NCBI GenBank assembly: GCA_963714745.1
Contig: CAVQPK010000007.1
Span: 135,959 to 199,958 of the forward strand
DNA: 64,000 nt
Reading direction: 5' to 3'
Source of the DNA: an uncultured Acidobacteriota bacterium
GTDB taxonomy: Bacteria > Acidobacteriota > Thermoanaerobaculia > Thermoanaerobaculales > Sulfomarinibacteraceae
Below are positions 8,583 to 61,694 of the stretch, in pieces. Under the pieces are notes generated by a model, which did not search any database, was not told where the DNA came from, and saw only the letters and a list, made by a program, of their open reading frames with translations. Each line of letters opens with the position of its first letter. Within the stretch, counting starts at the first letter, position 1. Made by a program: the position numbers and the translations under genes.

Positions 8583-10085
8583 CTAGAGGTTGGGGTTGCG
8601 CGCCATGGTCCGCAGACGACGGACCCGCTTGTCGCCGTCGAGCTCGGTGAGCCGCTCCGCAGCGCGCTCGTCGTCAGGGTCAGCGGTCAGTGCCAGCTGG
8701 AGGGCGCGACGCTCGCGGTCGACATTCCGGCGCCGGCGCCAGAAGGACGCCAGCTCGAGCCAGCCGTCGACCATGCCCGGGTCGAGCTCGAGCGCCTGCT
8801 TGAGCCGCGCCAGCGCCCGCTCCGACCACATCGGGTTGGCGAGCATCAGCCGCGCCAGCGTGAGCAGCGGCACCGGTTGCGGGTCGAGGTTGCATGCCGC
8901 CTCGAGCAGGGTGTAGGCGGTGTGGCGGTCGCCGGCGCGCAGCGCCTCCTCGGCCCGCCGCAGGTTGGCCCCGACGATCTCACGTCGTGCTATGTCCTGG
9001 CTCTGTGTCGCCGAGTCGCCTTCGCTCGTCGTGTCGACCCGGGGAACCGGGCGGCGGTCGGCGGGGCGAACCCGGTCGTATCGGACCCTCGACGATGGGT
9101 CGAACAGGGTCTGGTAGGCCATCCGCAGCTTTTCGGAGGCCTGCTCGAGAGCCTCGCCGAGATCGGCGAGGTGACCCTCGCGCGCCGCTCGCCCGGGGTC
9201 GAAGAACGCGCGCTGCCGCTCCCAAGCCTGCTCGATCGTGGTGTAGGACGAGCCGCGTGGAATGCCCAGCATCGCGTAGTGGTCGCCGCTCGGCGCCCGG
9301 GTGTGGAAGCTGACGATCGCCGCCCGCTCGGCCAGCTCGGAGTTGGACAGCCGTGCGCGCTCGGCGCGATTCCCGTTGATCTCGACCAGGGCGCCGCAGA
9401 GCACGAACGGCGCGACGAGGGCGCCCAGCCGCACGCGGTCGAGCTCGGTGTCTCGGATCACCTGGTCGAGGTCGGCTCCGCTGCCGAACGAGCCGAGCGC
9501 CCGCAGCTCCTCCTCGGTCGGGTCGAGGTCGCGGGCGATGTCTTCGGAGCTCCCGTTGAGACGCCACCTGCGGCCGGAGCTCATCAGCTGTGAGATCTCG
9601 CCGTTCTGGGGGAGCTCGCGCGCGGCCGCCAGGATGAGGCGGGCAGTGGCGCGGTCGGGCAGCTCGCCGCCGCCGGCCCGCCCGCCGGGATGGAACTCGA
9701 GGTGATCGCGCACCGCAGACGTGGCGCGGCGAACGATCGTCTTGGACAGAGCCTCGACCTCGTGGACGAGGGTCGGCCCGTCGATCAGATCGCGGTCGAG
9801 GAGAAGGCGGCCGAGCAGAACCGAAGGGTCGCCGGCCTGGGCCAGCAGCGCGAGGGCGACCTCCTCGGCACCGAGCCGGCCGCGTTGGGTCAACCACTCG
9901 CCGAGATGTTCGTCGTGACGATCGGAGCGGGTCGCCCGGATGAAGCCGGCCTCGAAGACCAGCTCCCGCCGGACGTCGGTCGAGACCACCGAGAGAGCGC
10001 CAGTGACCTCCTGGTCGCGCAGCTCCGCGAGGATCTTCGGCAGTGGCCGCTGGTCTTTGGGGGCGAAGTCGGGGAGCGAGGACAT
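8583..10085 (-). CDS. DUF4388 (PatA-N-like) / degenerate J-domain / TPR protein
   Basis: ORF 8583..10085(-). N-terminal ...VTGALSVVSTDVRRELVFEAGFIRATRSD...LGEWL... (DUF4388-like). A central J-like segment DHYAMLGIPRGSSYTTIEQAWERQRAFFDPGRA...AYQTLFDPSSRVRYDR. A TPR-like C-terminus. Confidence 0.75.
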   Translation of the reverse strand: MSSLPDFAPKDQRPLPKILAELRDQEVTGALSVVSTDVRRELVFEAGFIRATRSDRHDEHLGEWLTQRGRLGAEEVALALLAQAGDPSVLLGRLLLDRDLIDGPTLVHEVEALSKTIVRRATSAVRDHLEFHPGGRAGGGELPDRATARLILAAARELPQNGEISQLMSSGRRWRLNGSSEDIARDLDPTEEELRALGSFGSGADLDQVIRDTELDRVRLGALVAPFVLCGALVEINGNRAERARLSNSELAERAAIVSFHTRAPSGDHYAMLGIPRGSSYTTIEQAWERQRAFFDPGRAAREGHLADLGEALEQASEKLRMAYQTLFDPSSRVRYDRVRPADRRPVPRVDTTSEGDSATQSQDIARREIVGANLRRAEEALRAGDRHTAYTLLEAACNLDPQPVPLLTLARLMLANPMWSERALARLKQALELDPGMVDGWLELASFWRRRRNVDRERRALQLALTADPDDERAAERLTELDGDKRVRRLRTMARNPNL

Positions 10086-10226
10086 CGGGCGACTTCTCCC
10101 TTCAGGAATGCAGACCGAGTCTCGATTCTGGTTGGTACGACAACGGTGCGCCGGCGGGAATTCCCGCGAGCGCGGTGTATCGCCGACCGCAGCAGCTGTC
10201 TGTTGAAGGATGCGGGCTACACGCCG

Positions 10227-11399
10227 CTACAGCTCCCGCAGGGCCGAGGCCACCGGAAGGCGGGCCGCGCGCAGGGCCGGCAGCAGCCCCCCCACTGTGC
10301 CCATCAGCAGCGCGAAAGCGAACCCGATCGCGAGCAGCGAGGGGGTCACCCGGAACGCGAACGCGAGATGGGAGAAGGTCTGCCAGTTGATGGTGCCGGT
10401 GGTGAAGCCGTTGACCGGCAGCACCGCCAGGCAGCCGAGCACTCCGCCGGCGGCCGCGATCAACAACGATTCGAACAGGAAGGAGAGCACCACGCTGGCG
10501 CCGCCGAAGCCGAGCGCGCGCAGGGTGGCGATCTCCCGTGCCCGGGCGGCCACCGCCGAGTACATCGTATTGAGGGCCCCGAACACCGCCCCGATGCCCA
10601 TCACGATCGCGACCAGGAAGCCGAGGGTCATGATCAGTGCCGAGACCGCTCGCGACTGCTTGGCGTAGTACTCGCGCTCCCGGCTGGCCTGCACGGTCAG
10701 GCGGGGGTCGGCGGTGAGCCGGTCCTTGAAGGCGGGGAACAGGTCGGCGGTTCCGAGCCGCGCGGTGACCGACTGGAAGATGTTCTCCGGCCGCCTGAAT
10801 GCCTGGTTGAGCACCGCAGCGTCGCACCACAGCTCGGAGTCGAAGGCCGAGCCGCCGGCGTCGAGCACCCCGACCACGGTCCAGCTCTGGCCGCCGAAGT
10901 CGAGCCGCTGGCCGAGGCCGACGCCGCGGTAGATCGTGGCCGCGTTCTTTCCCACCACCACCTCTGCAGTGCCGGGGTTGAACTTCCGGCCCGCGACCAC
11001 CCTGACGCCCTCGCGCACGTCGAAGGTCCTCGACGACACGCCGCGAATCTGGACGTTGGCGTCGGTCCCGCTGGCGGCGAGGGGGAACGCGCCGATCACC
11101 ACCACCTCGGCGCTGACCAGCGGCGCCCCGTCGGCGGTCCGGGCCACCTCCGGCGCGTCGCCGATCACCTTGACCTGCTCCAGCGTCACCGCGCTGACCA
11201 TCTCCGAGTCGGCACCGGAGCGCAGCACGATCGCGTTGGCTGGAGACCCGGACGCCACCAGGGTGGCCTGGAAGCCGCGCGCCATCGACAGCATCGCCAC
11301 GAACACGCCGACCGTCCCGGCGATGCCGAGCACGGCGACGAGAGCAGCCGGCCACCGGACCATCACGCTGCGGGCGTTGTACGAGATCGGGATCGCCAT
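10227..11399 (-). CDS. ABC transporter permease, FtsX/MacB-type (permease 2)
   Basis: C-terminal 390 aa of ORF 10227..11957(-), from MAIPISYNARSVMVRW (ATG 11399-11397). One N-terminal TM helix, a large periplasmic domain, and a C-terminal FtsX 3-TM bundle (...REIATLRALGFGGASVV...). Confidence 0.85.
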   Translation of the reverse strand: MAIPISYNARSVMVRWPAALVAVLGIAGTVGVFVAMLSMARGFQATLVASGSPANAIVLRSGADSEMVSAVTLEQVKVIGDAPEVARTADGAPLVSAEVVVIGAFPLAASGTDANVQIRGVSSRTFDVREGVRVVAGRKFNPGTAEVVVGKNAATIYRGVGLGQRLDFGGQSWTVVGVLDAGGSAFDSELWCDAAVLNQAFRRPENIFQSVTARLGTADLFPAFKDRLTADPRLTVQASREREYYAKQSRAVSALIMTLGFLVAIVMGIGAVFGALNTMYSAVAARAREIATLRALGFGGASVVLSFLFESLLIAAAGGVLGCLAVLPVNGFTTGTINWQTFSHLAFAFRVTPSLLAIGFAFALLMGTVGGLLPALRAARLPVASALREL

Positions 11400-15015: not shown

Positions 15016-15476
15016 GTGCCGCTCCCAGGCGACGTGTGACGTGAAACGAAGGAGCGGACCGCCGTGGTTGCCTGCTTCCGGACCGGCTTGGGCAGAGAGT
15101 AGAGGTTGAGGTCCAGCACCTCACCCGACGCGAGCCGGATCCCGAGCGCGTCGTCCCCGGACCAGGCGACGCCCTGGACGTCCTCGGCCCGGACCCGCCG
15201 TGCCTGGATCGCCTCCGGGGGGGCGTAGTCGAACCACCCGTCGCCCACCGCGAGCACCGGCCGTCGCCGAGCGCGCAGCACCGCAGCGAGGTGGAAGACG
15301 ACCAGGATCAGGGCGACCACGGCGACCGCGACCCGGACCAGGGAAGCCACCGGTGGTCCGGGTTCGGTGGCGAGCCGGGCGACCCCGTCGGCTGCCGCGA
15401 CCAGGGCGAGGGCCGAGGCCGCCGCGCCCGTGATCGCATGCGCTGGCCTCGCCGCGAAGGTCATGGTCGCCCGCAT
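15012..15476 (-). CDS. hypothetical membrane protein (2 TM helices plus a small soluble domain)
   Basis: C-terminal 154 aa of ORF 15012..16685(-), from MRATMTFAARP (ATG 15476-15474). Two hydrophobic stretches. The stop overlaps the Dabb start by 4 nt. No family recognised. Confidence 0.5.
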   Translation of the reverse strand: MRATMTFAARPAHAITGAAASALALVAAADGVARLATEPGPPVASLVRVAVAVVALILVVFHLAAVLRARRRPVLAVGDGWFDYAPPEAIQARRVRAEDVQGVAWSGDDALGIRLASGEVLDLNLYSLPKPVRKQATTAVRSFVSRHTSPGSGT

Positions 15477-15572
15477 CGTCTCCTCCCCGGCGGCAGACCC
15501 GAGCCGTCGCGAACGAGTGTACCCGGCCCGGCAAGGAGTGGCTCGCGGAGCCGACCGGTCGCAGGCCCGGGG

Positions 15573-15624
15573 TTGACAGATCGCGGGTATTGCATAATTA
15601 TGCATTTTCCATTCCGAATTCACT
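15573..15624 (+). promoter_or_regulatory. putative arg-operon promoter overlapped by an ARG-box-like operator
   Basis: TTGACA (15573-15578), 17 nt, AATTAT (15596-15601). A perfect 14-bp palindrome TGCATAATTATGCA (15591-15604), followed by a half-site-like AATTCACT (15618-15625). This is the only AT-rich island for kilobases, 40 nt upstream of the argG ATG (RBS GGAGGAGG). Confidence 0.5.
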
Positions 15625-15641
15625 CGGATGGAGGAGGTCCG

Positions 15642-16844
15642 ATGCGGGTGGTGCTGGCGTACTCGGGAGGTCTCGACACCTCGTTCTGCGTCGCCTGGTT
15701 GACCAGGGAGCGCGGGTTCGAGGTCACCACGGTGACCGTCGACACCGGCGGCTTCGAGCGCGCCGAGCTCGACCTGATCGCCCGGCGGGCGCGGGCCGCG
15801 GGGGCGGTCGCCCATCGGGAGGTCGACGCCCGGCAGGCGGTGTGGGACGGGTTCGTGTCGACGCTGATCCGGGGCAACGTGCTGCGCGGCGCGGTCTACC
15901 CGGTCTCGGTGGCGGCCGAGCGGACCCAGCAGGCGGTCGAGGTGGCGCGGGTCGCCCGCGAGCTCAGCGCCGACGCCGTCGCCCACGGCTCGACCGGCGC
16001 CGGTAACGACCAGGTGCGGTTCGACGTCGCATTCCGCGGTGCTGCTGCAACGGTGTGCCGATCGCTCGCGCCGATCCGCGAGCTCGGGCTGACGCGGGAG
16101 CGGGCGATCGCGGCCCTCGAGAGCTGGGGCCTCGAGGTTCCCGAGGGTGCGGGCCGCTACTCGGTCAACCGCGGCCTGTGGGGGACGACCCTCGGCGGCG
16201 GCTGGACCCACGACCCCTGGCAGGGGCCGCCGGAAGACGCCTGGCCCGGCGCCGGTACGGCGTCGTCGCCGGCGCCCGAGGAGCTCGAGATCGGACTGGG
16301 AGCAGGGCCTCCCGGCGGCGCTCGACGGCGCCCTGATGCCGGGCCCGGACCTGGTCGCGGCGCTGGCGGGGCGGCTTGCTCCCCATGGCATCGGGCGCGG
16401 CATCCACCTCGGCGAGACCGTGCTCGGCATCAAGGGCCGGATCGGCTTCGAGGCCGGCGCGGCCATGGTGCTGGTTGCCGCCCACCGCGAGCTGGAGAAG
16501 CTGGTGCTGACCCGGTGGCAGTCGTTCTGGAAGGACCACCTGGCCCAGTTCTGGGGCGACCGCCTGCACGAGGGCCAGGCCTTCGATCCGGTGATGCGCG
16601 ACATCGAGGCGATGATCGCCAGCTCGCAGCGACGGGTCATCGGGGAGACGCGGGTCCGGCTCGCGGCCGGCAGCTTCCTGGTCACCGGCGTGCGCAGCCC
16701 GCACAGCCTGATGGACCCGACGGTGGCCCGCTACGGCGAGAGCAACGCGCTGTGGACCGGCGACGAGGCGCGGGCGTTCGCCAAGGTCGTCGGCGATCCC
16801 GTCGACTGCTCGCGGCGCGGGCGGGGGAGGGTCCGCCGTGGTGA
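15642..16844 (+). pseudogene. argG: argininosuccinate synthase, frame-broken as assembled
   Basis: ATG 15642. MRVVLAYSGGLDTSFCVAWL... (N-type ATP-PPase motif), ...HGSTGAGNDQVRFD.... The frame changes 0>1 near 16293 (PEELEI|DWEQGLPAALDG), 1>2 near 16795 (FAKVVG|IPS) and 2>0 at 16805-16826, reaching the TGA at 16842. Confidence 0.85.
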
Positions 16845-17902
16845 CGACCACGCTTCGCCTCGACCGGATCGCGTCCGTCGACCCGCAACGCCCGCATCGG
16901 TCGCGAGGTGCTGGTCGGGCCCGAGATCGTCGTGCCGCGAGGGATACGTGCTGGCGGTGCGGATCCTGACCGACGAAGACGGTCTACAACCAGGTCGAGG
17001 ACACCGGCGGACGGATGGTCCGCGCTGCGCGCCGGCGATCTGCTCGCCGGCGTGCTCGGCAGCCGCCGCGCGCTGCGCGGCTACGCCGGCGAGGTCCCCG
17101 AGGCGCTCGCGCCCGGCGACGTCGTCCAGGTGCTGAACATGGGCGGCGTGCTCGGCCGCTGCACCGCGGTCAACCCCGACCTCGGGCCGCCCTTCGACGC
17201 CGAGGTGCTGGGGGCGGTGCTGTCCTTCCCTCGCACCGGCGACCGGGTCGGCCGCCCGGCCCACATCCTCGACGGCGCGGTGGCCTCGGCCGAACGGCTG
17301 GAGGGCCGCGTGCCGGTCGTCTTCGTCGCCGGCACCTGCATGAACGCCGGCAAGACCATGGCCGCCGCCGAGATGGTGCACGGGCTCACCCGGGCCGGGC
17401 TCCGGGTGGCGGGGGTCAAGCTCACCGGCGTGTCGCTGCGCCGGGACTCGCTGGCGATGGTCGACGCCGGGCGCGGTCGCGGCGCTCACCTTCAACGACG
17501 CCGGGATCGTCTCCACCAACGCCGCCACGGCGCTGCCGACCGCCCACGGCCTGCTCAACGAGCTGGTCGCGGGTGCACCGGCCGGAGGTCGTCGTCGCCG
17601 AGCTCGGCGACGGCATCCTCGGCGAGTACGGGGTCGCGGTGCTGCTCGCGGACGCGCCGCTGATGGCGCTTTCCGCGGCGCTGGTGTGCTGCGCACCCGA
17701 CCAGGTCGCGGCCTGGGGCGCCGTGCGGGTGCTCGAGGAGCGCTTCGGCCTGCGGCCGACCGTGATCTCGGGCCCGGCGACCGACAACGAGGTCGGCTGC
17801 CGGTTCATCCGCGACCAGCTCGGCCTGCCGGCGGCCAACGCGCGGCGCCACGACGGCGAGCTGGTGCGGCTGGTGCTGGAGGCGGTCCGTGGCCGCGCGT
17901 GA
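16838..17902 (+). pseudogene. uncharacterised P-loop (GTxxNAGKT) protein embedded in the arg operon, frame-broken as assembled
   Basis: GTG 16838 overlaps the argG stop. The sense reading needs six +1 frame steps (near 16886, 16944, 16980, 17022, 17472, 17578). Longest clean block: ...LRAGDLLAGVLGSRRALRGYAGEVPEAL...RVPVVFVAGTCMNAGKTMAAAEMVHGLTRAGLRVAGVKLTGVSLRRDSLAMVDAG. The C-terminal block ends ...RLVLEAVRGRA* at 17902. Confidence 0.6.
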
Positions 17903-18928
17903 GGGGCTCCGCGTTGCCGTGATCGGCGCCTCCGGCTACGTCGGCGGTGAGCTGCTGCGCCTGCTTGCCGGGCATCCGGAGGTGGGCACGGTGCGGGCGT
18001 TCTCGGCCAGCGGCGCCGGGCGGCCGGCGGCCGAGGTCCACCCGGCGCTGGTGCACCTGCCGGAGCAGCGCTTCGAGTCGCCCGACCCCGCCGGCGCCGC
18101 GACCTGGGCGGAGGTGGTGTTCCTCGCGCTTCCCCATGGCCGCTCGCAGCTCATCCTGCGCGAGCTCTCCGCGGCGCCGCTGGTGATCGACACCGCGGCC
18201 GACTTCCGGATCCGGGACCGGGCGCTCTCCGAGGCGGCCTACGGGGACCACGCCGACTTCTCGGCGGTCGCGGAGTTCCGCTACGGCCTCGCCGACGTGG
18301 TCGGCAGCGAGCTCGCCGGGGCCCGGCGGATCGCGGTGCCGGGTTGCTTCGCCACCGCGGCGCTGCTCGGTCTGCGGCCGTTCGCCGGCCCCGGCGCGCT
18401 CGCCGCACCTCCGGTGGCGGTCGCCGCGACCGGCTCCTCCGGGTCGGGCGCCGAGCCCAAGGCGGCCACGCACCACCCTCGCCGCGCGCACAACTTCTTC
18501 GCCTACAGTGTGACCGGCCATCGCCACGAGGCCGAGATCGCCGAGCGGCTCCGGGCCTGGTCCGGCGCGCCCGGGGCGCACTGCACGCTGCTCACCCACT
18601 CGGCCCCACTGGTGCGTGGGATCCACGTCTGCCTCCATCTGCGGCCGTCGACGCCCATCGCCGACCCGCTCGCCAGGTCGCCCGCTGGCTACAGAGGCCG
18701 TCCGTTCGTCCGTGCTCGACCGGCCGCCCGAGGTCGCCGCGGTCGCCGGGACCAACTTCGCCCACCTGCATGCCGCCGCCCGGGACGGCGGCCGGGAGGT
18801 CATCGTGCTGGTCGCCATCGACAACCTGGTCAAGGGCGCCGCCGGCCAGGCGGTGCAGTGCGCCGAACCTCGCCCTCGGGCTCGACGAGGACTCGGGGCT
18901 CGACTTCCCGGGGATCTTCCCGTGCTGA
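17889..18928 (+). pseudogene. argC: N-acetyl-gamma-glutamyl-phosphate reductase, frame-broken as assembled
   Basis: GTG 17889 (MAAREGLRVAVIGASGYVGGELLRLL...), catalytic ...IAVPGCFATAALL.... Frame 0>1 near 18714 (PFVR|LDRPPEVAAVAGTNF) and 1>2 near 18865 (IDNLVKGAAGQAVQC|NLALGLDEDSGLDFPGIFPC*). Confidence 0.85.
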
Positions 18929-20072
18929 CGGAGACCGTCGAGATGGAGCTCCCGGTCTACGCGCGGCTGCCGTTCGTCCCCTTCGCGGGTCGGGGTCGAT
19001 GTTGGACGACGCCGCCGGGCGCGCCATGCTCGACCTCTACGGCGGTCACGCGGTGGCGCTGACGGGCCACTGCCACCCGCAGGTCGTGGCGGCGGTCGGG
19101 AGCAGGCCGAGCAGCTGCTGTTCTACTCCAACGCGGTCCCACTCGACATCCGCGACCGCCTCTTCGGGCTGCTCGCGGCGATGGCGCCGCCTGCGCTCGA
19201 GCCGCCTTCCTGGTCAACTCCGGCGCGGAGGCCAACGAGAACGCCCTCCAGCTCGCGCGCCGGATCACCGGCCGGCGCAGGGTCGTGACCTTCGAAGGCG
19301 GATTCCACGGCCGCACGCTCGCGACGCTCGCCGCCTCGGGGATCGCCAGGTACCGCGGGCTCGCGCGACCGCGCGGGCGGGGCGGCGCTGGTCGAGGAGG
19401 CACCGTCATCGGGTTCGACGATCCGCAGGCGCTGTCCGCGGTGGTCGAGGCCGGTGGCCGCGGTGCTCCTCGAGCCGGTGCAGGGCCTGGCCGGCGCCCG
19501 CGACGCTGCGCCGGACTTCCTGCGGGCGGCGCGGCCGGCCTGCGATGCCGTCGGCGCGCTGCTGATCTTCGACGAGGTCCAGTGCGGCTGCGGCCGGACC
19601 GGCGCGTTCACCGCCGCGCAGTCGTACGGCGTCACCCCGGACCTGGTGACCCTGGCCAAGGGGATCGCCGCCGGCCTGCCGATGGGGGCGGTGCTGTTGT
19701 CGGGGCGATCGCCGCGCGGTCGGCCGCGCGACCTCGGCACCACCTTCGGCGGCGGGCCGGTGCCCTGCGCCGCCGCGACCGCCAACTCGAGGTGCTCGCG
19801 ACGAGGACCTGCGGGCCGGGCGCGCAAGCTCGAGCGCAGCTGCGGCGGCGCTGGCGGCGATGCCGGGGGTCGTCAGGATCACCGGCCGCGGGCTGCTGCT
19901 GGGCGTGGTGCTCGACCGGCCGGCGCGACCGGTGCAGCAGGCGCTGTTCGAACGGGGCATCCTGGTCGGGACGGCGATCGACCCCGCCGTGCTGCGTCTG
20001 CTGCCGCCGCTGGTGCTGACCGACGACGAGGCGGCGCGATTCGTGGCCGCTCTCGAGGAGGTGCTCGCATGA
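18922..20072 (+). pseudogene. argD: acetylornithine aminotransferase (class III PLP), frame-broken as assembled
   Basis: GTG 18922 overlaps the argC stop (ATG 18943 is an alternative). Recognisable blocks sit in different frames. These include [52 protein letters not shown] and [46 protein letters not shown]. They also include [17 protein letters not shown]...[61 protein letters not shown] and [19 protein letters not shown]...[26 protein letters not shown]. There are at least 7 breaks. Confidence 0.8.
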
Positions 20073-21085
20073 GCCCGCGCTCTTTCTCGCCACCGACGAC
20101 TGGTCCGACGCGGAGATCCTCGGGTTGCTCGATCGTGCCGCGAAGCTCAAGACCGGCGCGGCGACGCCGCCCTCGCCGGCAAGGTGCTGTCGATGGTCTT
20201 CTTCGATCCCTCCCTGCGCACCCGCACGTCGTTCGAGGTGGCGATGGTGCGCCACGGCGGCCACGCGGTGGTGCTCGAGCCGGGCCGCGGCAGCTGGGCG
20301 ATCGAGACCCGCGACGGCGTGGTCATGGACGGCGGCCCGCCGAGCACATGATCGAGGCCGCGCGGGTGCTGGGGCGCTACGCCGACGCGCTCGCGGTGCG
20401 CGCCTTCCCGAGCGCCGAGACCTGGGCCGAGGCGCGCGAGGACGCGGTGGTGAAGGGCTTCGCCCGCCACGCCGGCGTGCCGGTGATCAACCTGGAGTCG
20501 GCCCGTCGCCACCCGTGCCAGGGCCTGGCTGACGCCCTCACCCTGCGCGAGAAGCTCGGGTCCCGGCTCGCCGGCCGGCGGTTCGTGCTCGCCTGGGCGT
20601 GGCACCCGAAGCCGCTGCCGACCGCGGTCCCGGCATCGGCCGCGCTGGCCGCCGCGCGGCTCGGGATGGAGGTCGTGATCGCGCGGCCCCCGGGCTACGA
20701 CCTCGACCCTGAGGACACCGCGTCGATCCGCGCCTGCGCCGGGAGGAACGGCGGCCGCCTGGTCGAGATCGATGACCTCGACGACGCGGTGGCGGGAGCC
20801 GACGCGGTCTACGCCAAGAGCTGGGGGTGTCTCGCCCACTTCGGCGATGCCACCGCCGAGGCCGAGCTGAGGGCGCCGCACCGGGGGTGGCGGATCGACG
20901 AGCGCCGGATGGCCTCGACCCGGATCGGCGCGGGGATCTTCATGCACTGTCTGCCGGTGCGTCGCAACGTGGTGGTCACCGACGGGGTGCTCGACGGGCC
21001 CTGGTCGGTGGTCACCGATCAGGCCGAGAACCGGCTGCACGCCCAGCGGGCGCTGCTGCTCGAGCTGCTCGGAGGTGGCTCATGA
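20069..21085 (+). pseudogene. argF': N-acetylornithine (or N-succinylornithine) carbamoyltransferase, OTCase-like ArgF' family, frame-broken near its 5' end
   Basis: ATG 20069 (ATGA overlap). Three -1 steps near 20082, 20162 and 20338, then intact to 21085. ...FLATDDWSDAEILGLLDRAAKLK | ALAGKVLSMVFFDPSLRTRTSFEVAMVRHGGHAVVLEPGRGSWAIETRDGVVMDGG | AEHMIEAARVLGRYADALAVRAF...HPCQGLAD...FMHCLP.... The W-x-I-E...V-M-D-G...EH insertion is the AOTCase/SOTCase hallmark rather than classical ArgF. Confidence 0.8.
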
Positions 21086-21999
21086 CCGAGCTCGTGCAGG
21101 GCCTCAAGGAGGCCCTCGACTACACCCGGCTCTACCGCGACCAGATCTTCGTGGTCAAGCTCGGCGGCGAGGTGATGGCCTCGCCCGACCGGCTCGACGA
21201 AATCGCGATCCAGATCGCCCTGCTGGAGTCGCTCTCGATCCGGGTGGTGCTGGTCCACGGCGGAGGGCCCCAGGCGACCGAGCTCGGCCGCCGGCTCGGC
21301 CTCGAGCCGGAGATCGTCGCAGGGCGCCGGGTGACCACTCCCGAGGTGCTCGAGGTGGCGAAGATGGTCTACGCCGGACGGCTCAACGTCGACGTCTTGT
21401 CGGCGCTCACCGGCCACGGCGTGAAGGCTGTCGGCCTGTCCGGTATCGACGCCGGGCTGGTCGTGGCCCACCGCCGGCCCCCGGTCGAGGTGACCGACGA
21501 CGAGGGCGAGCTGCGATCGGTCGACTTCGGCGAGGTCGGCGACGTCGACTCGGTCGACGTCGCGCTGCTCGAGCTGCTGCTCGAGCGCGGCTACGTTCCG
21601 GTGGTCGCCTCGCTTGCGGCGGACGCCGACGGCAAGGTGCTCAACGTCAACGCCGACACGCTCGCCGAGGCTCTGGCGAGCGCCCTCAAGGCGAAGAAGC
21701 TGATCTACCTGACCGGGGCGCCCGGGCTGCTGCGGGAGCCGGACGACCCCTCGTCGCTGGTCGCCTTCGCCTGCCCCGACGACCTCCGCGAGCTGCTCGG
21801 GAGCGGCGGCGTTCGGGGCGGGATGCGGCCCAAGGTCGAGGCCTGCCTGCGGGCGGTGGCGGGCGGCGTGCGACGGACCCACATCATCGACGGCCGGCAG
21901 CCCGACTCGCTGCTGCTGGAGCTCTTCACCGGCCACGGCTCGGGCACGATGATCGTCGCCCGCCGGGAGATGGAGAGCTACCGGGAGCGCGAGCTGTGA
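21082..21999 (+). CDS. argB: acetylglutamate kinase
   Basis: Inside ORF 20827..21999, from MTELVQGLKEAL (ATG 21082, ATGA overlap). ...IFVVKLGGEVM...VVLVHGGGPQ...VLNVNADTLA...GGMRPKVEA.... Confidence 0.92.
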   Translation: MTELVQGLKEALDYTRLYRDQIFVVKLGGEVMASPDRLDEIAIQIALLESLSIRVVLVHGGGPQATELGRRLGLEPEIVAGRRVTTPEVLEVAKMVYAGRLNVDVLSALTGHGVKAVGLSGIDAGLVVAHRRPPVEVTDDEGELRSVDFGEVGDVDSVDVALLELLLERGYVPVVASLAADADGKVLNVNADTLAEALASALKAKKLIYLTGAPGLLREPDDPSSLVAFACPDDLRELLGSGGVRGGMRPKVEACLRAVAGGVRRTHIIDGRQPDSLLLELFTGHGSGTMIVARREMESYREREL

Positions 22000-23072
22000 G
22001 CCTCGGCGATCCCGCCGGGCTGCTCGCCGAGCTGGTCGCGACCCCGAGCCCCTCGGGAGCCGAGGCGGAGGCGGCGCGGGTGCTGGCCGGTTGGGCCCAG
22101 GCCCGGGGTCTCGAGCCCGCGGTCGACGACGCGGCGGTGCGCCTCGAAGCGGTCGGCAGGTCCCCCGGCCCGACCCTGCTCTTCGCCTCGCACCTGGACA
22201 CCGTGCCTCCGGGGGAGGGCTGGACCCGGGATCCCTATGGTGCGACCACCGACGACGGCCTGCTCTTCGGCCGCGGCGCGGTCGACGCCAAGGCGTCGGT
22301 GGCGGCGATGGCGGCTGCTGCTGCCCGGCTCGCCGCCGCAGGAGGCCCGTCGCGCGGCCGGCTGGTGGTGCTCGCCACCTACTCCGAGGAGACCCGCGAC
22401 ACCACCATGCCCGAGGCGCTGCGCCGTCTCGGCGGTCCTCCCGATGCAGCGGTGGTGGGGGAGCCCACCTCGCTCGAGCCGGCCACCGCCCAACGCGGCC
22501 AGCTGCTGCTCAAGCTCGTGTGGCAGGGCGAGCAGCTCCACGCGGGAAGGGCCGCGGGCCGGGTGCCGAGGCCGGTCAACGCGATCGAGCGCGCCGCCGC
22601 CGACCTGGTCGCCCTCGCCGCCCTCGAGCTGCCGGGCCGTCACCCGACCCTGGGCGGAATCGCCGTGACCCCGACCATGCTCTCCGCCGGCGTCGCCCGC
22701 AACGTCACGCCGCCGCGGGCGGAGGCGGTGCTCGACATCCGGACCACCCCGGTGATGAGCCACCGGGAGGTGGTCGACGCGGTCGCCCGGGCGGTCGCAG
22801 CACGGGTCGAGGTGCTCTCCGACCGGCTGGTGCCGGCCGAAACCCCGCCCGGCTCGGGGCTGCTGGCCGCCCTCGGCCGGGTCGCGCCGGACGCACGGCC
22901 GTTCGCGTCGCCGACCTGCTCCGACTGGGTCTTCCTGCGCCACGTCGACGCCCTCAAGCTGGGCCCTGGCGAGTCGGACTGGTCGCACCGGCCCGACGAG
23001 CGGGTCGATCTCGCCGAGGTCGAGCGGGCGGCGGAGCTGTACGCCGCGCTCGCCGAGGAGTACCTGTCGTGA
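21996..23072 (+). CDS. argE: M20-family deacylase (acetylornithine / acetylcitrulline deacetylase)
   Basis: Inside ORF 21075..23072, from GTG 21996 (GTGA overlap). ...LLFASHLDTVPPGEGWTRDPYGA...LFGRGAVDAKASVAAM...YSEETRDT...VVGEPTSL.... These are M20 metal ligands in the operon context. Confidence 0.8.
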   Translation: MSLGDPAGLLAELVATPSPSGAEAEAARVLAGWAQARGLEPAVDDAAVRLEAVGRSPGPTLLFASHLDTVPPGEGWTRDPYGATTDDGLLFGRGAVDAKASVAAMAAAAARLAAAGGPSRGRLVVLATYSEETRDTTMPEALRRLGGPPDAAVVGEPTSLEPATAQRGQLLLKLVWQGEQLHAGRAAGRVPRPVNAIERAAADLVALAALELPGRHPTLGGIAVTPTMLSAGVARNVTPPRAEAVLDIRTTPVMSHREVVDAVARAVAARVEVLSDRLVPAETPPGSGLLAALGRVAPDARPFASPTCSDWVFLRHVDALKLGPGESDWSHRPDERVDLAEVERAAELYAALAEEYLS

Positions 23073-24448
23073 CGACGACCACGGTGACCCTGTGGGGAGA
23101 GCTCGACGCCGCGGTCGCGGCCTACACCGTGGGTGACGACCGGGTCTGGGACCGCAGGCTGCTGAGCTGGGACATCCTCGGCAGCCTCGCCCACGTGGAG
23201 GGCTTGGAGGCCTGCGGGCTGCTGAGCCGGTCCGACGGCGCCCGCCTGCGCCGCGCGCTGGCCGAGGCCCTCGACGACGCCCGCCGCGGCACCCTGACCG
23301 TGACCGAGGCCGACGAGGACGTGCACACCGCGCTCGAGGGCCGGCTGGTCGCGCGCCTGGGCGAGCTCGGCGAGCGGGTCCACACCGGGCGCTCCCGCAA
23401 CGACCAGGTGATGGTCGACCTTCGGCTGGTGGTCAAGGACCGCCTGCTGGCGGTGATGGACCGGACGGTCGACCTCGCCACGGCGCTGGCGCGGTTCGGC
23501 CGCCGACACGAGCGGGTGCTGATGCCGGGCTACACCCACCAGCGGCGCGCGATGCCCTCTTCGATCGGCCTTTGGGGCGCGGGCCTGGCCGAGTCACTGG
23601 TCGAGGACCTGGGTCTCGTCGAGGCCGCCCTCGACCTCGCCGACCGGTCGCCGCTCGGCAGCGCGGCCGGCTACGGTGTGCCCCTGCCGATCGACCGGGC
23701 CCTGGTCAGCGAGCGGCTCGGCTTCGCCTCCGTCCAGCGGGCGGTGACCGTCGTTCAGGCGTCCCGGGGCAAGCTCGAGGCCGCGGTGCTCGCCGCCCTG
23801 TGGGCAGTCGCCCATGATCTCGGCCGGCTCGCCTGGGACGTGATCCTGTGGAGCTCCGAGGAGTTCGGCTTCCTCCAGCTGCCGAGCGGGCTCGCCACAG
23901 GGTCCAGCATCATGCCCCAGAAGAAGAACCCCGACCTGTTCGAGCTCACCCGGGCGCGGGCGGGCGCCCTGCTCGGGCTCACCGTCGAGTGTGCGGCGGT
24001 GGCAGGGCCGCTGCCGAGCGGCTACCATCGCGACCTGCAGCTGGCCAAGGGGCCCCTGTTCAGGGGTCTCGACCTGGCCGAGGAGGCGGTGACGGCCATG
24101 GCCCGGGCGATACCCAGGATCGGCGTCGACCGGCGCGCCTGCGCGGCGGCGGTGACCGGGGACCTGCTCGCCACCGACGAGGTCTTCCGCCGCGTGCGCG
24201 GCGGCGCCAGCTTCCGTGCCGCCTACCACCAGGTCGCGGACGAGGTCCGCGCGGGGGTCGCCGTGCCGGAGCTGCCGGCCGACGAGGTCCGCTCGGCCCG
24301 AACCCACCTCGGTGGTGTCGGCGCGCCCGGTTTCGCCGCCTTGGCCCGCGATCTCCGGAGCTGGCGGAGGCGGATCGGGAGGCGGCGCAGGGCGTTCGAC
24401 GCCGCGCTGGCGGGCCTGGTCGGGCGCGCCAGGGAAGGTGGTCGGTGA
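23069..24448 (+). CDS. argH: argininosuccinate lyase
   Basis: Inside ORF 22091..24448, from GTG 23069 (GTGA overlap). ...HTGRSRNDQV..., ...MPGYTHQRRAMP..., fumarate-lyase signature GSSIMPQKKNPD. Confidence 0.93.
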   Translation: MTTTTVTLWGELDAAVAAYTVGDDRVWDRRLLSWDILGSLAHVEGLEACGLLSRSDGARLRRALAEALDDARRGTLTVTEADEDVHTALEGRLVARLGELGERVHTGRSRNDQVMVDLRLVVKDRLLAVMDRTVDLATALARFGRRHERVLMPGYTHQRRAMPSSIGLWGAGLAESLVEDLGLVEAALDLADRSPLGSAAGYGVPLPIDRALVSERLGFASVQRAVTVVQASRGKLEAAVLAALWAVAHDLGRLAWDVILWSSEEFGFLQLPSGLATGSSIMPQKKNPDLFELTRARAGALLGLTVECAAVAGPLPSGYHRDLQLAKGPLFRGLDLAEEAVTAMARAIPRIGVDRRACAAAVTGDLLATDEVFRRVRGGASFRAAYHQVADEVRAGVAVPELPADEVRSARTHLGGVGAPGFAALARDLRSWRRRIGRRRRAFDAALAGLVGRAREGGR

Positions 24449-24900
24449 AGAGCCGCCGTCGCCGCGAGCTGATCCTGGCGCTGGTCGCGTCCCGGCGCGT
24501 GGAAACCCAGGACGAGCTCGCCGCGGCGCTTGCCGAGAAGGGTCTTGCGGCCAGCCAGGCGTCGGTCTCACGCGACGTCGCCGCTCTCGGCCTGGTCAAG
24601 GTCGACGGCCGCTATGCGCCGCCGCCCCCCGAAGCGCCCTCCGGCGATCCGCGGGAGGCCCGGGTCGCGGCCTACCTCCTGGGTATCGCGCCGGCCGGCG
24701 ACCACCTGCTGGTGCTCAAGACCCCCCCGGGGGAGGCCCCCGGCGTCGCGCTCGCGGTCGACAGCCTCGATCTCGCCGGTGTGGTCGGTACGGTCGCCGG
24801 CGACGACACCATCTTCGTCGCCGTGTCCGGCGCTCGCGCCCGCGACGCCGTCACCCGCCGCCTCGCCGCCCTCAGCCCCGCCACCCGCCGCACCGGGTAA
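24445..24900 (+). CDS. argR: arginine repressor
   Basis: Inside ORF 23848..24900, from GTG 24445 (GTGA overlap). Winged-helix N-terminus ...ETQDELAAALAEKGLAASQASVSRDVAALGLVK.... C-terminal ...VVGTVAGDDTIFV... (the GTIAGDDT core). Confidence 0.9.
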   Translation: MKSRRRRELILALVASRRVETQDELAAALAEKGLAASQASVSRDVAALGLVKVDGRYAPPPPEAPSGDPREARVAAYLLGIAPAGDHLLVLKTPPGEAPGVALAVDSLDLAGVVGTVAGDDTIFVAVSGARARDAVTRRLAALSPATRRTG

Positions 24901-25008: not shown

Positions 25009-25548
25009 TCACTCCGCGCCGGGGAGGCGCTCGCCGCACTGGGGGCAGAAGCGGTCCTCCTGGCTCACCGCCTGGCCGCACTTCGGGCAGGTCAGCAGGG
25101 CCTCGAGCTCGGAGGAGTCGGAGTAGGTGACTCCCTGGATGACCCAGCCGTCGGCGCGCTCTTCGAGTGAGAAGCGGATCCGCGCGCTGCCGCGCTCGAA
25201 CTCGGCGAGGTACTCGACCCGGGCGCGGCTGCCCTGCGGCGTGCGATTGATGTTCATGCCCGCCAGCCTGACCCCGGTTCGGGCCCCGAGCCTCTCCCGG
25301 ACGGCGGTCTCGAAGTTGATGTACTCCTGCTCGTCGAGCTCGGTCGTCACCCCCTCGCCGAGCCGGTCGTAGGCGGCCTCGAGATCGCCGCGGCCGACGT
25401 CCTCGAGATAGGCCTCGGTGGCCGCCGTGAGGCCCGCATGGGCGCCCCGGACCATGTACACACAGGCCCCGATGCCGCCGATCAGGACAAAGACCGTGAT
25501 CGCGCAGCCCCACAGCCAGCAGCCCCAACCTCTGTGTCCCTCCGCCAT
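25009..25548 (-). CDS. membrane-anchored protein with C-terminal zinc ribbon
   Basis: ORF 25009..25548(-). TM helix WGCWLWGCAITVFVLIGGIGACVYMV, a small mixed alpha/beta domain, and C-terminal CPKCG-x11-CPQCG. Confidence 0.65.
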   Translation of the reverse strand: MAEGHRGWGCWLWGCAITVFVLIGGIGACVYMVRGAHAGLTAATEAYLEDVGRGDLEAAYDRLGEGVTTELDEQEYINFETAVRERLGARTGVRLAGMNINRTPQGSRARVEYLAEFERGSARIRFSLEERADGWVIQGVTYSDSSELEALLTCPKCGQAVSQEDRFCPQCGERLPGAE

Positions 25549-28947: not shown

Positions 28948-32477
<3,530 letters not shown>

Positions 32478-32485
<8 letters not shown>

Positions 32486-34347
32486 GGTCGTCTCCGGCGG
32501 GCTCGACCCGCGAGCGGGCGAGCGCCTCGTCGAGCAGCGGCACCACGTCCTCCGGGCGCTTGAACGGCGCGATGACGTAGACCCCGGCGCACCGTGCCGG
32601 GGCTTCGGCGAGCATCGTCAGGGCGTGCTCGCGACCCAGCCGTGCAGCCTCGGGCCCGGCCTCCTCGAGGGCCGAGATCAGGTTGTCCGGAACCATGATT
32701 CCCGGGACCTCGTGGTGCAGGCGCAGCGCCAGCCGGGCCGAGGTCAGCGGCCAGATCGCGACCAGGGTCGGAATCGGCGTCCGGCCGCCGAGGCGGTCCA
32801 ACATGCGCTCGTAGGGGGCCCACTCGAAGAACACCTGGGTCATCGCGAAGTGGGCTCCGGCGTCGACCTTGCGCTGGAGCCGGTCGAGCTCGTGGTCGAG
32901 GTCGTCGGCGTTGGGGTTGACCGCGACCCCGACCAGGAACGACGGCGGCTCGAGGATCGGGTTTCCGGCGCAGTCGACCCCCTCGGCCATGCGGGAGATC
33001 GCGCGCACCAGCTCGAAGACGTCGACGTGGTAGACGTCGTGCACCCCCGGGTAGTCGCCGAGCTGGGACGGGTCGCCGGTGACCGCGAACAGGTTGCGGA
33101 CGCCGCCCAGCCATGCGCCCAGCAGCTGCGACTGGAGGCCCATCAGCGACGCGTCGCGGGGGGTGATGTGGGGCATGCACTCCAGGCCGGTACGGCGCTG
33201 GATCTCCACCGCCAGCGACAGCGAGTCCATGCGCAGCCGGGCGAGCGGGTTCGAGTTGATGTCGACCGCATGCACGCCGGGGTGGGCGGCGAGCCGCTCG
33301 GCCGCCTGCAGCACCGCGTCCGCGTTGGTGCCCTTGGGCGGGTCGATCTGCACCACGCGCACGAAGCGGCCGCGGTCGAGGCTCTCGGCGAGGGTCGACT
33401 GCGGCCGAGGGGCGGGGTGCGGCGTGGTCCGGGCCACCGTCAGCCGGTGCGGTCCGTGGTGGTGCTCGGGCTTGAGCCCGCGCATCGCCTCGACCATCGC
33501 CTGGATGTGCTCCGGGCCGGTGCCACAGCAGCCGCCCACGATCGACACCCCCAGCGCCGCCGCCTCGCGGGCGAAGCGCGCCAGGTAGGCGGGCGTGGCC
33601 GGCGGCATCAGGAGGCGGCCGTCACGCCGCTGCAGCACCCCGGCGTTGGGCATCGCGACCAGGGTGCAGTCGAGCTCGGGCAGCGCGCGCAGGATCTCCA
33701 GCGTTCCCATCGGACCGGGCGAGCAGTTCGACGCCGACCCCGTCGAGGCCGAGATCGACCACCCGCATGAGGTCGCGGGCGTGGTCCTCCCACTGGTGAG
33801 GCGGGCGCTCGGCGGGAAAGGTCATCATCCCGAGCACCGGCAGCGCGGTCGCCCGGCGCACCGCCTCGGCGGCGACCTCCATCTCGTCGGCCCGGAAGAA
33901 GGTCTCGAGCACGATCAGGTCCGCACCGCGGTCGGCGAGGATCGCCGCCTGCTCGGCGTGGGAGGCGGCGATCGCCTGCCGGCAGGCCGGGTCGTCCATG
34001 TCGAGCACGCCGGCGAGGGGGCCGATCGAGCCCGCGACCAGGCAGTCGCGCCCGGACAGCTCGCGTGCGTCCCGAGCGAGCTTGACTGCCCGGGAGTTGA
34101 CCTCCTCGACCAGGTGCGCGGCGCGGCGGGCGGCGAGGCGGGGGCGAGAGGCGCCGAAGGTGGCGGTTTCGATCAGCTCGGCGCCCGCCTTGAGAAAGCC
34201 GAGGTGGATCTCGAGCACCTCGGCCGGGTGCTCGACTGCGGCCAGGTCGAGAATCGCCCCTGGTTCGAGCCGGGTGAGCAGCTCCGAGCCCATCGCGCCG
34301 TCGGCGACGACCACGTGGTCGGCGAGGCGGTCGGCGAACCGGCTCAC
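32478..34347 (-). pseudogene. bifunctional homocysteine S-methyltransferase / methylenetetrahydrofolate reductase (YitJ-like), one frame break as assembled
   Basis: GTG 34347 (GTGA overlap with the upstream gene). ...VVADGAMGSELL...ETATFGA... continues as ...DLGLDGVGV | NCSPGPMGTLEIL... after removing one base near 33729. Then GGCCGTGPEHI and an MTHFR domain (...HAVDINSNPLARLRMDS...HITPRD...). The stop overlaps the metH start by 8 nt. Confidence 0.85.
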
Positions 34348-61111: not shown

Positions 61112-61694
61112 TCAGGTCGGGGCGGTCTGAAGCTCCCGGTACAGCCACGATCGGGCCAGGCTCCAGCCGCGCTTGATTGTTGCAGGTGAAACCTCGAGCG
61201 CCTCGGCGGTCTCATCGACCGAGAGGCCCCCGAAGCACCGGCACTCGACGATGCGGGCGAGGCGGGGCTGCCGCTCGGTCGAGGCGCTCGAGCGCCTCGT
61301 CGAGGGCCAGGAGCTCCTCGGAGCGCTCGGCGGAGACCAGCATCGACTCCTCGAGCGCGGCCGGGACCCGGCCTCCGCCGCGCTTCTGACGCCCCAGCCA
61401 ACGGGCGTTGTCGATCAGGATGCTGCGCATCGCTTTGGAGGCGAGAGCATAGAAGTGCCGGCGGTTGGCGAAGTCGACGTTGACCTGCCCCTGCAGCTTG
61501 AGGTAGGCCTCGTGCACCAGGCTGGTCGTGCCCGGGGCGCGCTGGTCGCTCCACCGGTAGCGGTTGGCCCGCGCCAGCTCCTTGAGCTCGCCGTAGATCA
61601 GCGGCATGAGCTGCTCGAGCACGGCGCTTCGGTTGACATCCGGCTGGTCGCCGAGCTGCGCCAGAAGGCGCGTGATCTCGCCGCTGCCGTTCAT
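61112..61694 (-). pseudogene. ECF sigma factor of the kinase-associated type (TIGR02999-like), one frame break as assembled
   Basis: ATG 61694. MNGSGEITRLLAQLGDQPD...LMPLIYGELKELARANR...TSLVHEAYLKL.... Region 4 is only read after removing one base near 61277 (ALERLD | [54 protein letters not shown]). The stop at 61112 is 14 nt before the kinase ATG. Confidence 0.8.

Follow-up and report, generated by a model that had tools for sequence, protein, structure and literature searches.

Genuine multi-hit pseudogenes are known from reductive genomes such as those of Mycobacterium leprae and of insect endosymbionts, and true decay brings not only stop codons and larger deletions but also substitutions at conserved sites and a loss of codon bias. 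Errors in long-read consensus sequences are overwhelmingly indels of one or two bases. In Xanthomonas, an operon for the acetylated arginine pathway contains argF' and argE. Spurious pseudogenes vary with the sequencing platform, the assembler and the coverage (Cooley and Wright, 2024; PMC11017572); 98% of the errors flagged in a long-read assembly were indels or complex, and indel errors were brought in by collapsed alleles (Cosentino et al., 2021; PMC8445201). The MFD MAGs are Flye assemblies that received one round of Medaka (PMC12313526).

The window that we analyzed, a stretch of 64,000 nucleotides from an uncultured, Acidobacteriota-like bacterium with a GC content of 72%, carries an arginine operon that reads argG-X-argC-argD-argF'-argB-argE-argH-argR after frame correction, a gene order common to Acidobacteriota and Gemmatimonadota relatives. 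A first-pass annotation of this DNA had noted about 20 changes of reading frame between 16293 and 20339 and had offered two readings of them: a poor consensus or a recent wholesale inactivation of the genes. The cluster itself was recovered in our analysis, but it comprises about 30 events and begins at 16034 (Table 1). About ten events are additions to the earlier list (extra bases at 16034, 16049, 16064 and 19375; missing bases at 19409, 19699, 19716, 19727, 19810 and 19846, with the -1 triple at 19699/19716/19727 graded probable); the remaining sites of Table 1, from 16296 to 20336, correspond to the breaks that had been listed, each recovered within about 15 nt. Gene identities were assigned by NCBIfam profiles and agree with those proposed before; e.g., the corrected ArgF' protein scored 439.4 bits on NF003384 (cut-off 288) over residues 2-334. 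Judged from the comparisons described below, the operon is almost certainly intact despite its apparent pseudogenes.

Table 1. Coordinates of the arginine operon, of the frameshift cluster within it, and of isolated frame breaks in the window.
Feature	Position (nt)	Strand	Evidence or remarks
argG, argininosuccinate synthase	15642..16844	+	6 extra bases; corrected protein 85% aa identity to L161
gene X, conserved 352-aa protein of unknown function	16838..17902	+	6 extra bases; corrected protein 85% aa identity to P0001
argC, N-acetyl-gamma-glutamyl-phosphate reductase	17889..18928	+	2 events close to the 3' end
argD, acetylornithine transaminase	18934..20072 (start approximate)	+	about 15 events, densest part of the cluster
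argF', N-acetylornithine carbamoyltransferase	20069..21085	+	3 missing bases in the first 270 nt; other 750 nt clean
argB, argE, argH, argR	21085..24900	+	intact; gap-free versus L161 as far as 23072
Frameshift cluster	16034..20336	+	DNA alignment to L161, frameshift-aware protein alignment, frame segmentation
Insertion zone	16034..17565	+	12 single extra bases: 16034, 16049, 16064, 16296, 16790, 16805, 16875, 16934, 16972, 17022, 17466, 17565
Indel-free 1.15 kb stretch within the cluster	17566..18712	+	covers the 3' end of X and most of argC
Deletion zone	18713..20336	+	missing at 18713 (2), 18977, 19096, 19205, 19409, 19450 (2), 19699, 19716, 19727, 19785, 19796, 19810, 19846 (2), 20080, 20153, 20336
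Extra bases inside the deletion zone	18865 and 19375	+	n = 2
Break splitting metH (Pterin_bind / B12-binding_2)	30448..30502 (near 30475)	-	+1; split Pfam domains
Break splitting the S-methyltransferase domain of a homocysteine-methyltransferase/MTHFR fusion	33711..33750 (near 33729)	-	+1; split Pfam domains
Break splitting an ECF sigma factor	61250..61295 (near 61275)	-	+1; split Pfam domains

An alignment to the closest genomes had been suggested earlier, and as reference for the indel calls we used the operon of the closest relative (L161), which is intact and shares 82% nucleotide identity with the window. A MAFFT alignment of the DNA revealed 30 gap events in the cluster, each of 1-2 nt, with 14 extra bases and 16 missing stretches in the window. 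Across the 7.4 kb aligned to this relative, no gap was a multiple of three and none exceeded 2 nt, and positions 20337-23072 contained no gaps of any size. Frameshift-aware protein-to-DNA alignment of each gene against four to six relatives placed the breaks at the same sites and detected zero frameshifts in argB, argE, argH and argR, genes that had already been described as free of breaks. A GC3 frame plot combined with a 7-state Viterbi segmentation showed the coding frame switching about 20 times at 16293-20332; no stop codon was present at the frame junctions of the cluster, while elsewhere in the window the segments were gene-sized and ended at stops. A tblastn search without composition correction was unusable because alternative frames of high GC content produced spurious homology.

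The signs of the events are ordered along the cluster. The first 12 are all extra bases and 16 of the 18 that follow are missing bases (runs test, p=1.5e-4), in line with the same-sign run noted before; five deletions fall inside 62 nt (19785-19846) and three insertions inside 30 nt. The cluster has 7.0 events per kb and the remainder of the window 0.05 per kb, a 139-fold difference (binomial p=3e-32), and the probability of finding no event in the following 4.6 kb at the rate of the cluster is 1.5e-14. The earlier judgment that uniform random error would not yield such a pattern thus stands, and the non-random density together with the same-sign run points to a local stretch of low depth or faulty polishing rather than to biology. 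Dense runs of one sign are compatible with a stretch read from one or very few molecules and incompatible with independent mutations. The events follow a physical stretch of DNA, not the genes: the edges of the cluster lie 390 nt into argG and 270 nt into argF', its interior includes an indel-free gap of 1.15 kb, and no events occur in the operon outside it. The change from exclusively extra to predominantly missing bases is not accounted for by any demonstrated technical cause and counts against an origin in the consensus. The indels sum to zero modulo 3 in argG, X and argF' and do not in argC and argD. Selection for frame restoration through same-sign triplets was considered and rejected, since long out-of-frame stretches remain and same-sign runs predict as much.

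Apart from the indels, the five genes bear no signs of decay. The first-pass annotation had described clean enzyme sequence between the breaks, and we found no stop codons in the five frame-corrected proteins and only two deviations at 584 conserved residues (columns with 97% conservation or more across 71-122 homologues), compared with 3 of 301 in the intact argB, argE and argH. An indel-to-substitution ratio of 1:1 would already predict about nine such deviations (Poisson P(<=2) ~0.005). Lineage-specific amino acid changes in the broken genes number 93 in the window versus 107 in the L161 lineage (30 versus 39 for argB plus argE), and GC3 of the broken genes is still 0.9-1.0. Hence, neither the relative rate nor the conserved sites of these sequences show the excess that relaxed selection would leave.

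These data bear directly on the possibility that about 30 real indels very recently inactivated argG, X, argC, argD and argF', leaving an arginine auxotroph or a cell with another set of arg genes elsewhere. There is no question that the deposited sequence contains the frame breaks, auxotrophy is common among uncultured bacteria, and our database searches with the corrected X protein uncovered no intact same-species copy that would contradict such a loss (best match, 85% identity). A scan of genome and metagenome contigs for ArgB likewise yielded at best 81% identity, and exact look-ups of ArgB and of a HlyD-like protein gave no match. Nevertheless, we regard this loss as very unlikely: besides the absence of excess substitutions, of stop codons and of any indel larger than 2 nt, the cluster begins and ends within genes, and the operon was not lost as a unit, given that two thirds of argF' and all of argB, argE, argH and argR are free of defects. 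No further set of arg genes, for which a search had been proposed, was present in the window, the DNA that our search covered. Moreover, further hits are neutral once a gene is broken, so that the approximately 15 hits in argD without substitutions would require a locally confined mutator producing only indels, and we know of no such mutator. Real indels that arose in one localized event (e.g., error-prone synthesis over a repair tract of about 4 kb), with essentially no substitutions and a young five-gene knockout as the result, would be highly improbable; an indel-only "mutation shower" is, to our knowledge, undescribed in bacteria.

A further reading takes the breaks as real and the genes as still working, with expression getting past each break through programmed ribosomal frameshifting, transcriptional slippage or insertion/deletion RNA editing; the sole point in its favor is the perfectly kept coding sequence between the breaks. 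The sites lack slippery heptamers and homopolymer tracts, the required corrections are both +1 and -1/-2, at times only 11-15 nt apart, and the breaks are not conserved, with 17 of 19 relatives having none and the other two having theirs elsewhere. Since we are also aware of no bacterial bypass system of this kind, we assign this explanation a negligible probability.

Most indel sites lack any run of three bases or longer, and in several insertions the added base matches neither neighbor; homopolymer slippage was therefore rejected. That the indels lie outside homopolymers, the commonest error sites in polished Nanopore or HiFi sequence, counts against a consensus origin; raw or low-depth sequence fits these sites better than a well-polished consensus does. 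A methylation or sequence motif was sought as well: GATC occurred near 7 of the 14 insertions versus 2.6 expected (p=0.007), which is not significant after 256 tetramers had been tested, and most GATC sites are indel-free. Repeats or inverted repeats of note do not flank the cluster.

Few parts of the window are as GC-rich as the operon (0.74-0.77). This property, and the restriction of the errors to one stretch, would suit a hybrid assembly whose polishing with short reads broke down locally at extreme GC content, so that raw long-read sequence stayed in place. However, the broken zones have a GC content of 0.749, no different from the 0.749-0.750 measured for argB-argR and for the error-free 3' part of argF'; the indel-free gap within the cluster is even richer (0.765), and the peak of 0.772 at 22-23 kb is error-free. 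We consider such a failure of hybrid polishing improbable. GC-driven dropout was rejected on the same grounds (0.749 versus 0.750 in broken and clean stretches), and the equal GC content gives a simple dropout no support as the technical cause.

When the same aligner was applied to the operons of 19 relatives, no frameshifts were found in 17 of them, including all nine with contig names of the short-read style. The two exceptions are L006, a Nanopore-only MAG with four frameshifts (+1, +1, +1, +2), and L025, with a single one and with a 'tig' contig name that hints at long reads. Their breaks lie at positions other than those in the window, and none of the window's breaks is shared by any of the 19 relatives. 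The window itself contains three further breaks, in metH, the MTHFR fusion and the ECF sigma factor gene; exactly three outside the operon had been counted before, and the split Pfam domains bear this out. They are of the same style as those of the cluster, each being an extra base outside a homopolymer. The source contig exceeds 1 Mb, a length that very probably implies assembly from long reads, and one protein of the window is matched exactly on a recorded contig of more than 1 Mb. A 179-aa protein of the window, next to argR and argH, was found in identical form on a Logan contig of ERR12037370, a sample that holds the species.

Taken together, the frameshifts are very probably not mutations in the organism but errors of a long-read consensus that was, over this stretch, left unpolished or polished wrongly. 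This reading is supported by the indel-only spectrum with events of 1-2 nt, by edges inside genes, by the untouched downstream part of the operon, by the three additional, isolated breaks in housekeeping genes of the contig and by the restriction of such frameshifts, among the 19 relatives, to contigs of known or apparent long-read origin. The consensus would have been poorly supported or wrongly polished for about 4.3 kb (16034-20336), possibly because it rests there on very few reads, on a single backbone read that was never polished, or on a collapse in which reads from a related strain were merged into it; indels would have survived at about 0.7% per base in this stretch and at about 0.005% in the remainder of the window. 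We infer both the sequencing platform and what went wrong locally, be it low depth or the collapse of strains. Underneath, the genes argG, X, argC, argD and argF' are most probably complete and working. The first-pass annotation had held that the sequence alone cannot decide between its two readings. Comparative evidence (indel spectrum, conserved sites, edges and relatives) largely does decide: the reading as poor consensus is supported and that of wholesale inactivation is strongly disfavored.

Taken at face value, the deposited sequence would cause five arginine-biosynthesis genes to be called pseudogenes and the organism to be scored as an arginine auxotroph. The locus is a clear example of poor long-read consensus over a short stretch that can look like the loss of a pathway in a MAG, and it shows how artefact and decay can be separated without reads by means of the indel-only spectrum, change at conserved sites, the relative rate and gene-blind boundaries. 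Should the indels be real, they would call for an unknown localized and indel-specific mutational process, for which the evidence leaves little room.

Among the known systems, the operon resembles the acetylated arginine pathway of Xanthomonas in possessing argF' and argE, but it carries the uncharacterized X, and argA/argJ are not recognizable. As in the multi-hit pseudogenes of reductive genomes (e.g., M. leprae), there are several frame disruptions per gene and adjoining genes of a pathway are affected; unlike them, the window shows two changes at 584 conserved sites, no stops, no indels above 2 nt and a GC3 of 0.9-1.0. The window also resembles the spurious pseudogenes of long-read assemblies (PMC11017572; PMC8445201), in which indel-only errors break otherwise conserved ORFs, and the Nanopore-only MAG L006 presents the same phenomenon in the same operon. 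The window differs from typical errors of this class in its density (30 events in 4.3 kb versus 3 in 60 kb), in its non-homopolymer sites, and in the succession of an insertion-only and a deletion-rich stretch.

The coding frame across the arginine operon was traced with a GC3 frame plot and a seven-state Viterbi segmentation. It hopped about 20 times between positions 16293 and 20332 without a stop codon at the junctions; the remainder of the window resolved into gene-sized segments terminated by stops. With a custom protein-to-DNA aligner possessing frameshift states (four to six relatives per gene), we recovered all the breaks that the first-pass annotation had listed from argG to argF' within about 15 nt, together with several more; argB, argE, argH and argR, previously described as unbroken, gave no frameshifts. 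The clearest view of the indels came from a MAFFT alignment of positions 15601-23400 with L161 (82% nt identity), a Logan contig that is the best relative overall and carries an intact operon (products of 398, 351, 346, 380, 339, 305 and 358 amino acids). This alignment contains 30 gap events, each of 1 or 2 nt and confined to 16034-20336, and none in 20337-23072; the disruption is thus larger than initially reported. The triple of deletions at 19699-19727, located in a variable loop, counts only as probable.

Features of the arginine operon, indel sites and isolated breaks (window positions; 2-nt events marked)
Feature	Position	Strand	Basis
argG	15642-16844	+	NCBIfam on frame-corrected protein
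X	16838-17902	+	NCBIfam: no family above threshold
argC	17889-18928	+	NCBIfam on frame-corrected protein
argD	about 18934-20072	+	NCBIfam on frame-corrected protein
argF'	20069-21085	+	NCBIfam on frame-corrected protein
argB	21085-21999	+	NCBIfam
argE	21996-23072	+	NCBIfam
argH	23069-24448	+	NCBIfam
argR	to 24900	+	NCBIfam
Extra bases	16034, 16049, 16064, 16296, 16790, 16805, 16875, 16934, 16972, 17022, 17466, 17565, 18865, 19375	+	MAFFT vs L161
Missing bases	18713(2), 18977, 19096, 19205, 19409, 19450(2), 19699, 19716, 19727, 19785, 19796, 19810, 19846(2), 20080, 20153, 20336	+	MAFFT vs L161
Zinc-ribbon protein (179 aa), adjoining argR	25009-25548	-	
metH, Pterin_bind and B12-binding_2 separated, isolated +1	30448-30502	-	split domains
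Homocysteine-S-methyltransferase/MTHFR fusion gene, S-methyltransferase domain split, isolated +1	33711-33750	-	split domains
ECF sigma factor, isolated +1	61250-61295	-	split domains

The nearest relatives are uncultured Acidobacteriota. No same-species copy of the broken region was found in the genome and metagenome collections, where the best ArgB identity was 81%, or by a protein search with frame-corrected X, where the best identity was 85%, the value shared by the L161 protein. The GC content of the window is about 72%, and out-of-frame reading frames stay open across hundreds of codons (e.g., 15291-16844); a 517-aa ORF covers the entire argG gene despite 165 out-of-frame codons. Since such frames also yield strong spurious protein similarity between relatives, ORF length alone conceals frameshifts in genomes this rich in GC.

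Indel density is 7.0 per kb within the cluster and 0.05 per kb elsewhere (139-fold, binomial p = 3e-32), and the signs of the events fall into six runs as compared to about 16 expected (permutation p = 1.5e-4). The density contrast and same-sign run noted at first pass are therefore non-random, and the switch from insertions to deletions along the cluster is real. The cluster begins 390 nt into argG, ends 270 nt into argF', and encloses a clean gap of 1.15 kb; two thirds of argF' and all of argB-argR are untouched. Its micro-clustering (five deletions in 62 nt, three insertions in 30 nt) and long same-sign runs look, from the sequence, like calls from one or very few molecules rather than independent mutations. 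The indel sites do not lie within homopolymers, and no repeats bound the cluster. No sequence motif was significantly linked to them in 256 tests; of the 14 inserted bases, 7 have a GATC no more than 10 nt away, against an expectation of 2.6 (uncorrected p = 0.007, not significant after 256 tests), an association absent near the deletions (16000-20400). A GC-related failure of hybrid polishing, a sub-type of artefact, is very unlikely: broken and clean parts have the same GC content (0.749 vs 0.750), and GC dropout was rejected as a cause on these values.

A genuine recent inactivation of the arg genes, the second of the two readings offered at first pass, is highly improbable. The five frame-corrected proteins are free of stop codons, and all events are of 1-2 nt. 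Aligned with 71-122 homologues each, these proteins depart from the conserved residue at just 2 of 584 columns with conservation of 97% or higher, and one of these departures sits in the ambiguous patch at 16034-16064. For the intact argB, argE and argH products the count is 3 of 301. Substitutions merely as frequent as indels would already predict about nine such departures (by our calculation, the Poisson P(<=2) is about 0.005). At a ratio like those of mutation-accumulation experiments, where substitutions outnumber indels roughly 10:1, dozens would be predicted. With L162 and L003, two other relatives' loci, as outgroups, window-specific amino-acid changes numbered 93 against 107 for L161 in the broken genes, and 30 against 39 in argB and argE, which indicates no acceleration in the window lineage. 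Pathway loss is also not expected to respect limits inside argG and argF' with argB-argR clean, a placement that fits a physical stretch of poor consensus. Recoding or editing has a negligible probability.

We are therefore highly confident in the other reading, that the cluster marks a stretch where the long-read consensus is locally poor. It follows that argG, X, argC, argD and argF' are probably intact; the frameshift cluster is not a biological feature. The three breaks outside it that had been noted at first pass are likewise found as split genes (metH, the MTHFR fusion and the ECF sigma factor), each with what looks like a single added base, apparently G, outside homopolymers; they match the style of the operon's insertion zone. 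The zinc-ribbon protein has an exact match on a contig of >1 Mb, a length that, for an uncultured soil-type bacterium, implies long reads. When the same aligner was applied to the operons of 19 relatives, 17 had no frameshifts, including all nine with short-read-style contig names. The only positives were L025, with one frameshift and a 'tig' contig name suggestive of long reads, and L006 (CAVRZJ010000023.1, MFD05942.bin.2.248), with +1, +1, +1 and +2 events in argG and argC (4995, 6630, 6739 and 6774). The latter is an independent, Nanopore-only Microflora Danica MAG of a different species; these MAGs were assembled with Flye and given a single Medaka round (PMC12313526). Spurious pseudogenes vary with platform, assembler and coverage (PMC11017572); in a long-read assembly, 98% of flagged errors were indels or complex, and indel errors arise when related alleles are collapsed (PMC8445201). 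The sign switch might reflect a drift in error mode along the molecule in one or two reads that were left unpolished or, as another guess, related-strain reads mis-aligned during polishing. The cluster is a warning that pseudogenes and auxotrophies should be called with care from long-read MAGs.

The argF' product is identified as N-acetylornithine carbamoyltransferase, with 439 bits against a threshold of 288 (NCBIfam, frame-corrected). In the window, argH and argR overlap at GTGA; in L162 (ena:ERZ25039500 contig_10717, 16264-18258) they were called as a single 664-aa product with Lyase_1 and Arg_repressor domains, which may reflect either a true fusion or, in another assembly with 'contig_' names, a frameshift or the loss of a stop. 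The zinc-ribbon protein also matches exactly a 1,975-bp Logan contig from run ERR12037370, where argR and the argH 3' end follow in the same order; this run contains the window's species.

Gene X encodes a protein of roughly 350 amino acids (L161 counterpart at 10001-11056) from a large, uncharacterised family (>5,400 proteins at E<=1e-20; 1,751 clusters at 50% identity). All 120 listed homologues lack a precomputed Pfam domain, and X lies between argG and argC in all 64 relatives' loci carrying both genes. Since the window operon has neither argA nor argJ, X is a hypothetical candidate to carry out the absent acetylation of glutamate. The confident AlphaFold model of P0001, a homologue 85% identical to X (pLDDT 92.8), combines a beta-rich N-terminal half with a C-terminal P-loop domain. 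SRP GTPases, HypB and dethiobiotin synthetase have folds similar to that of the modelled P-loop domain; its likeness to the N-acetyltransferase DgcN (7xrj) and to a DUF1611 protein (2obn) is weaker (TM about 0.4).
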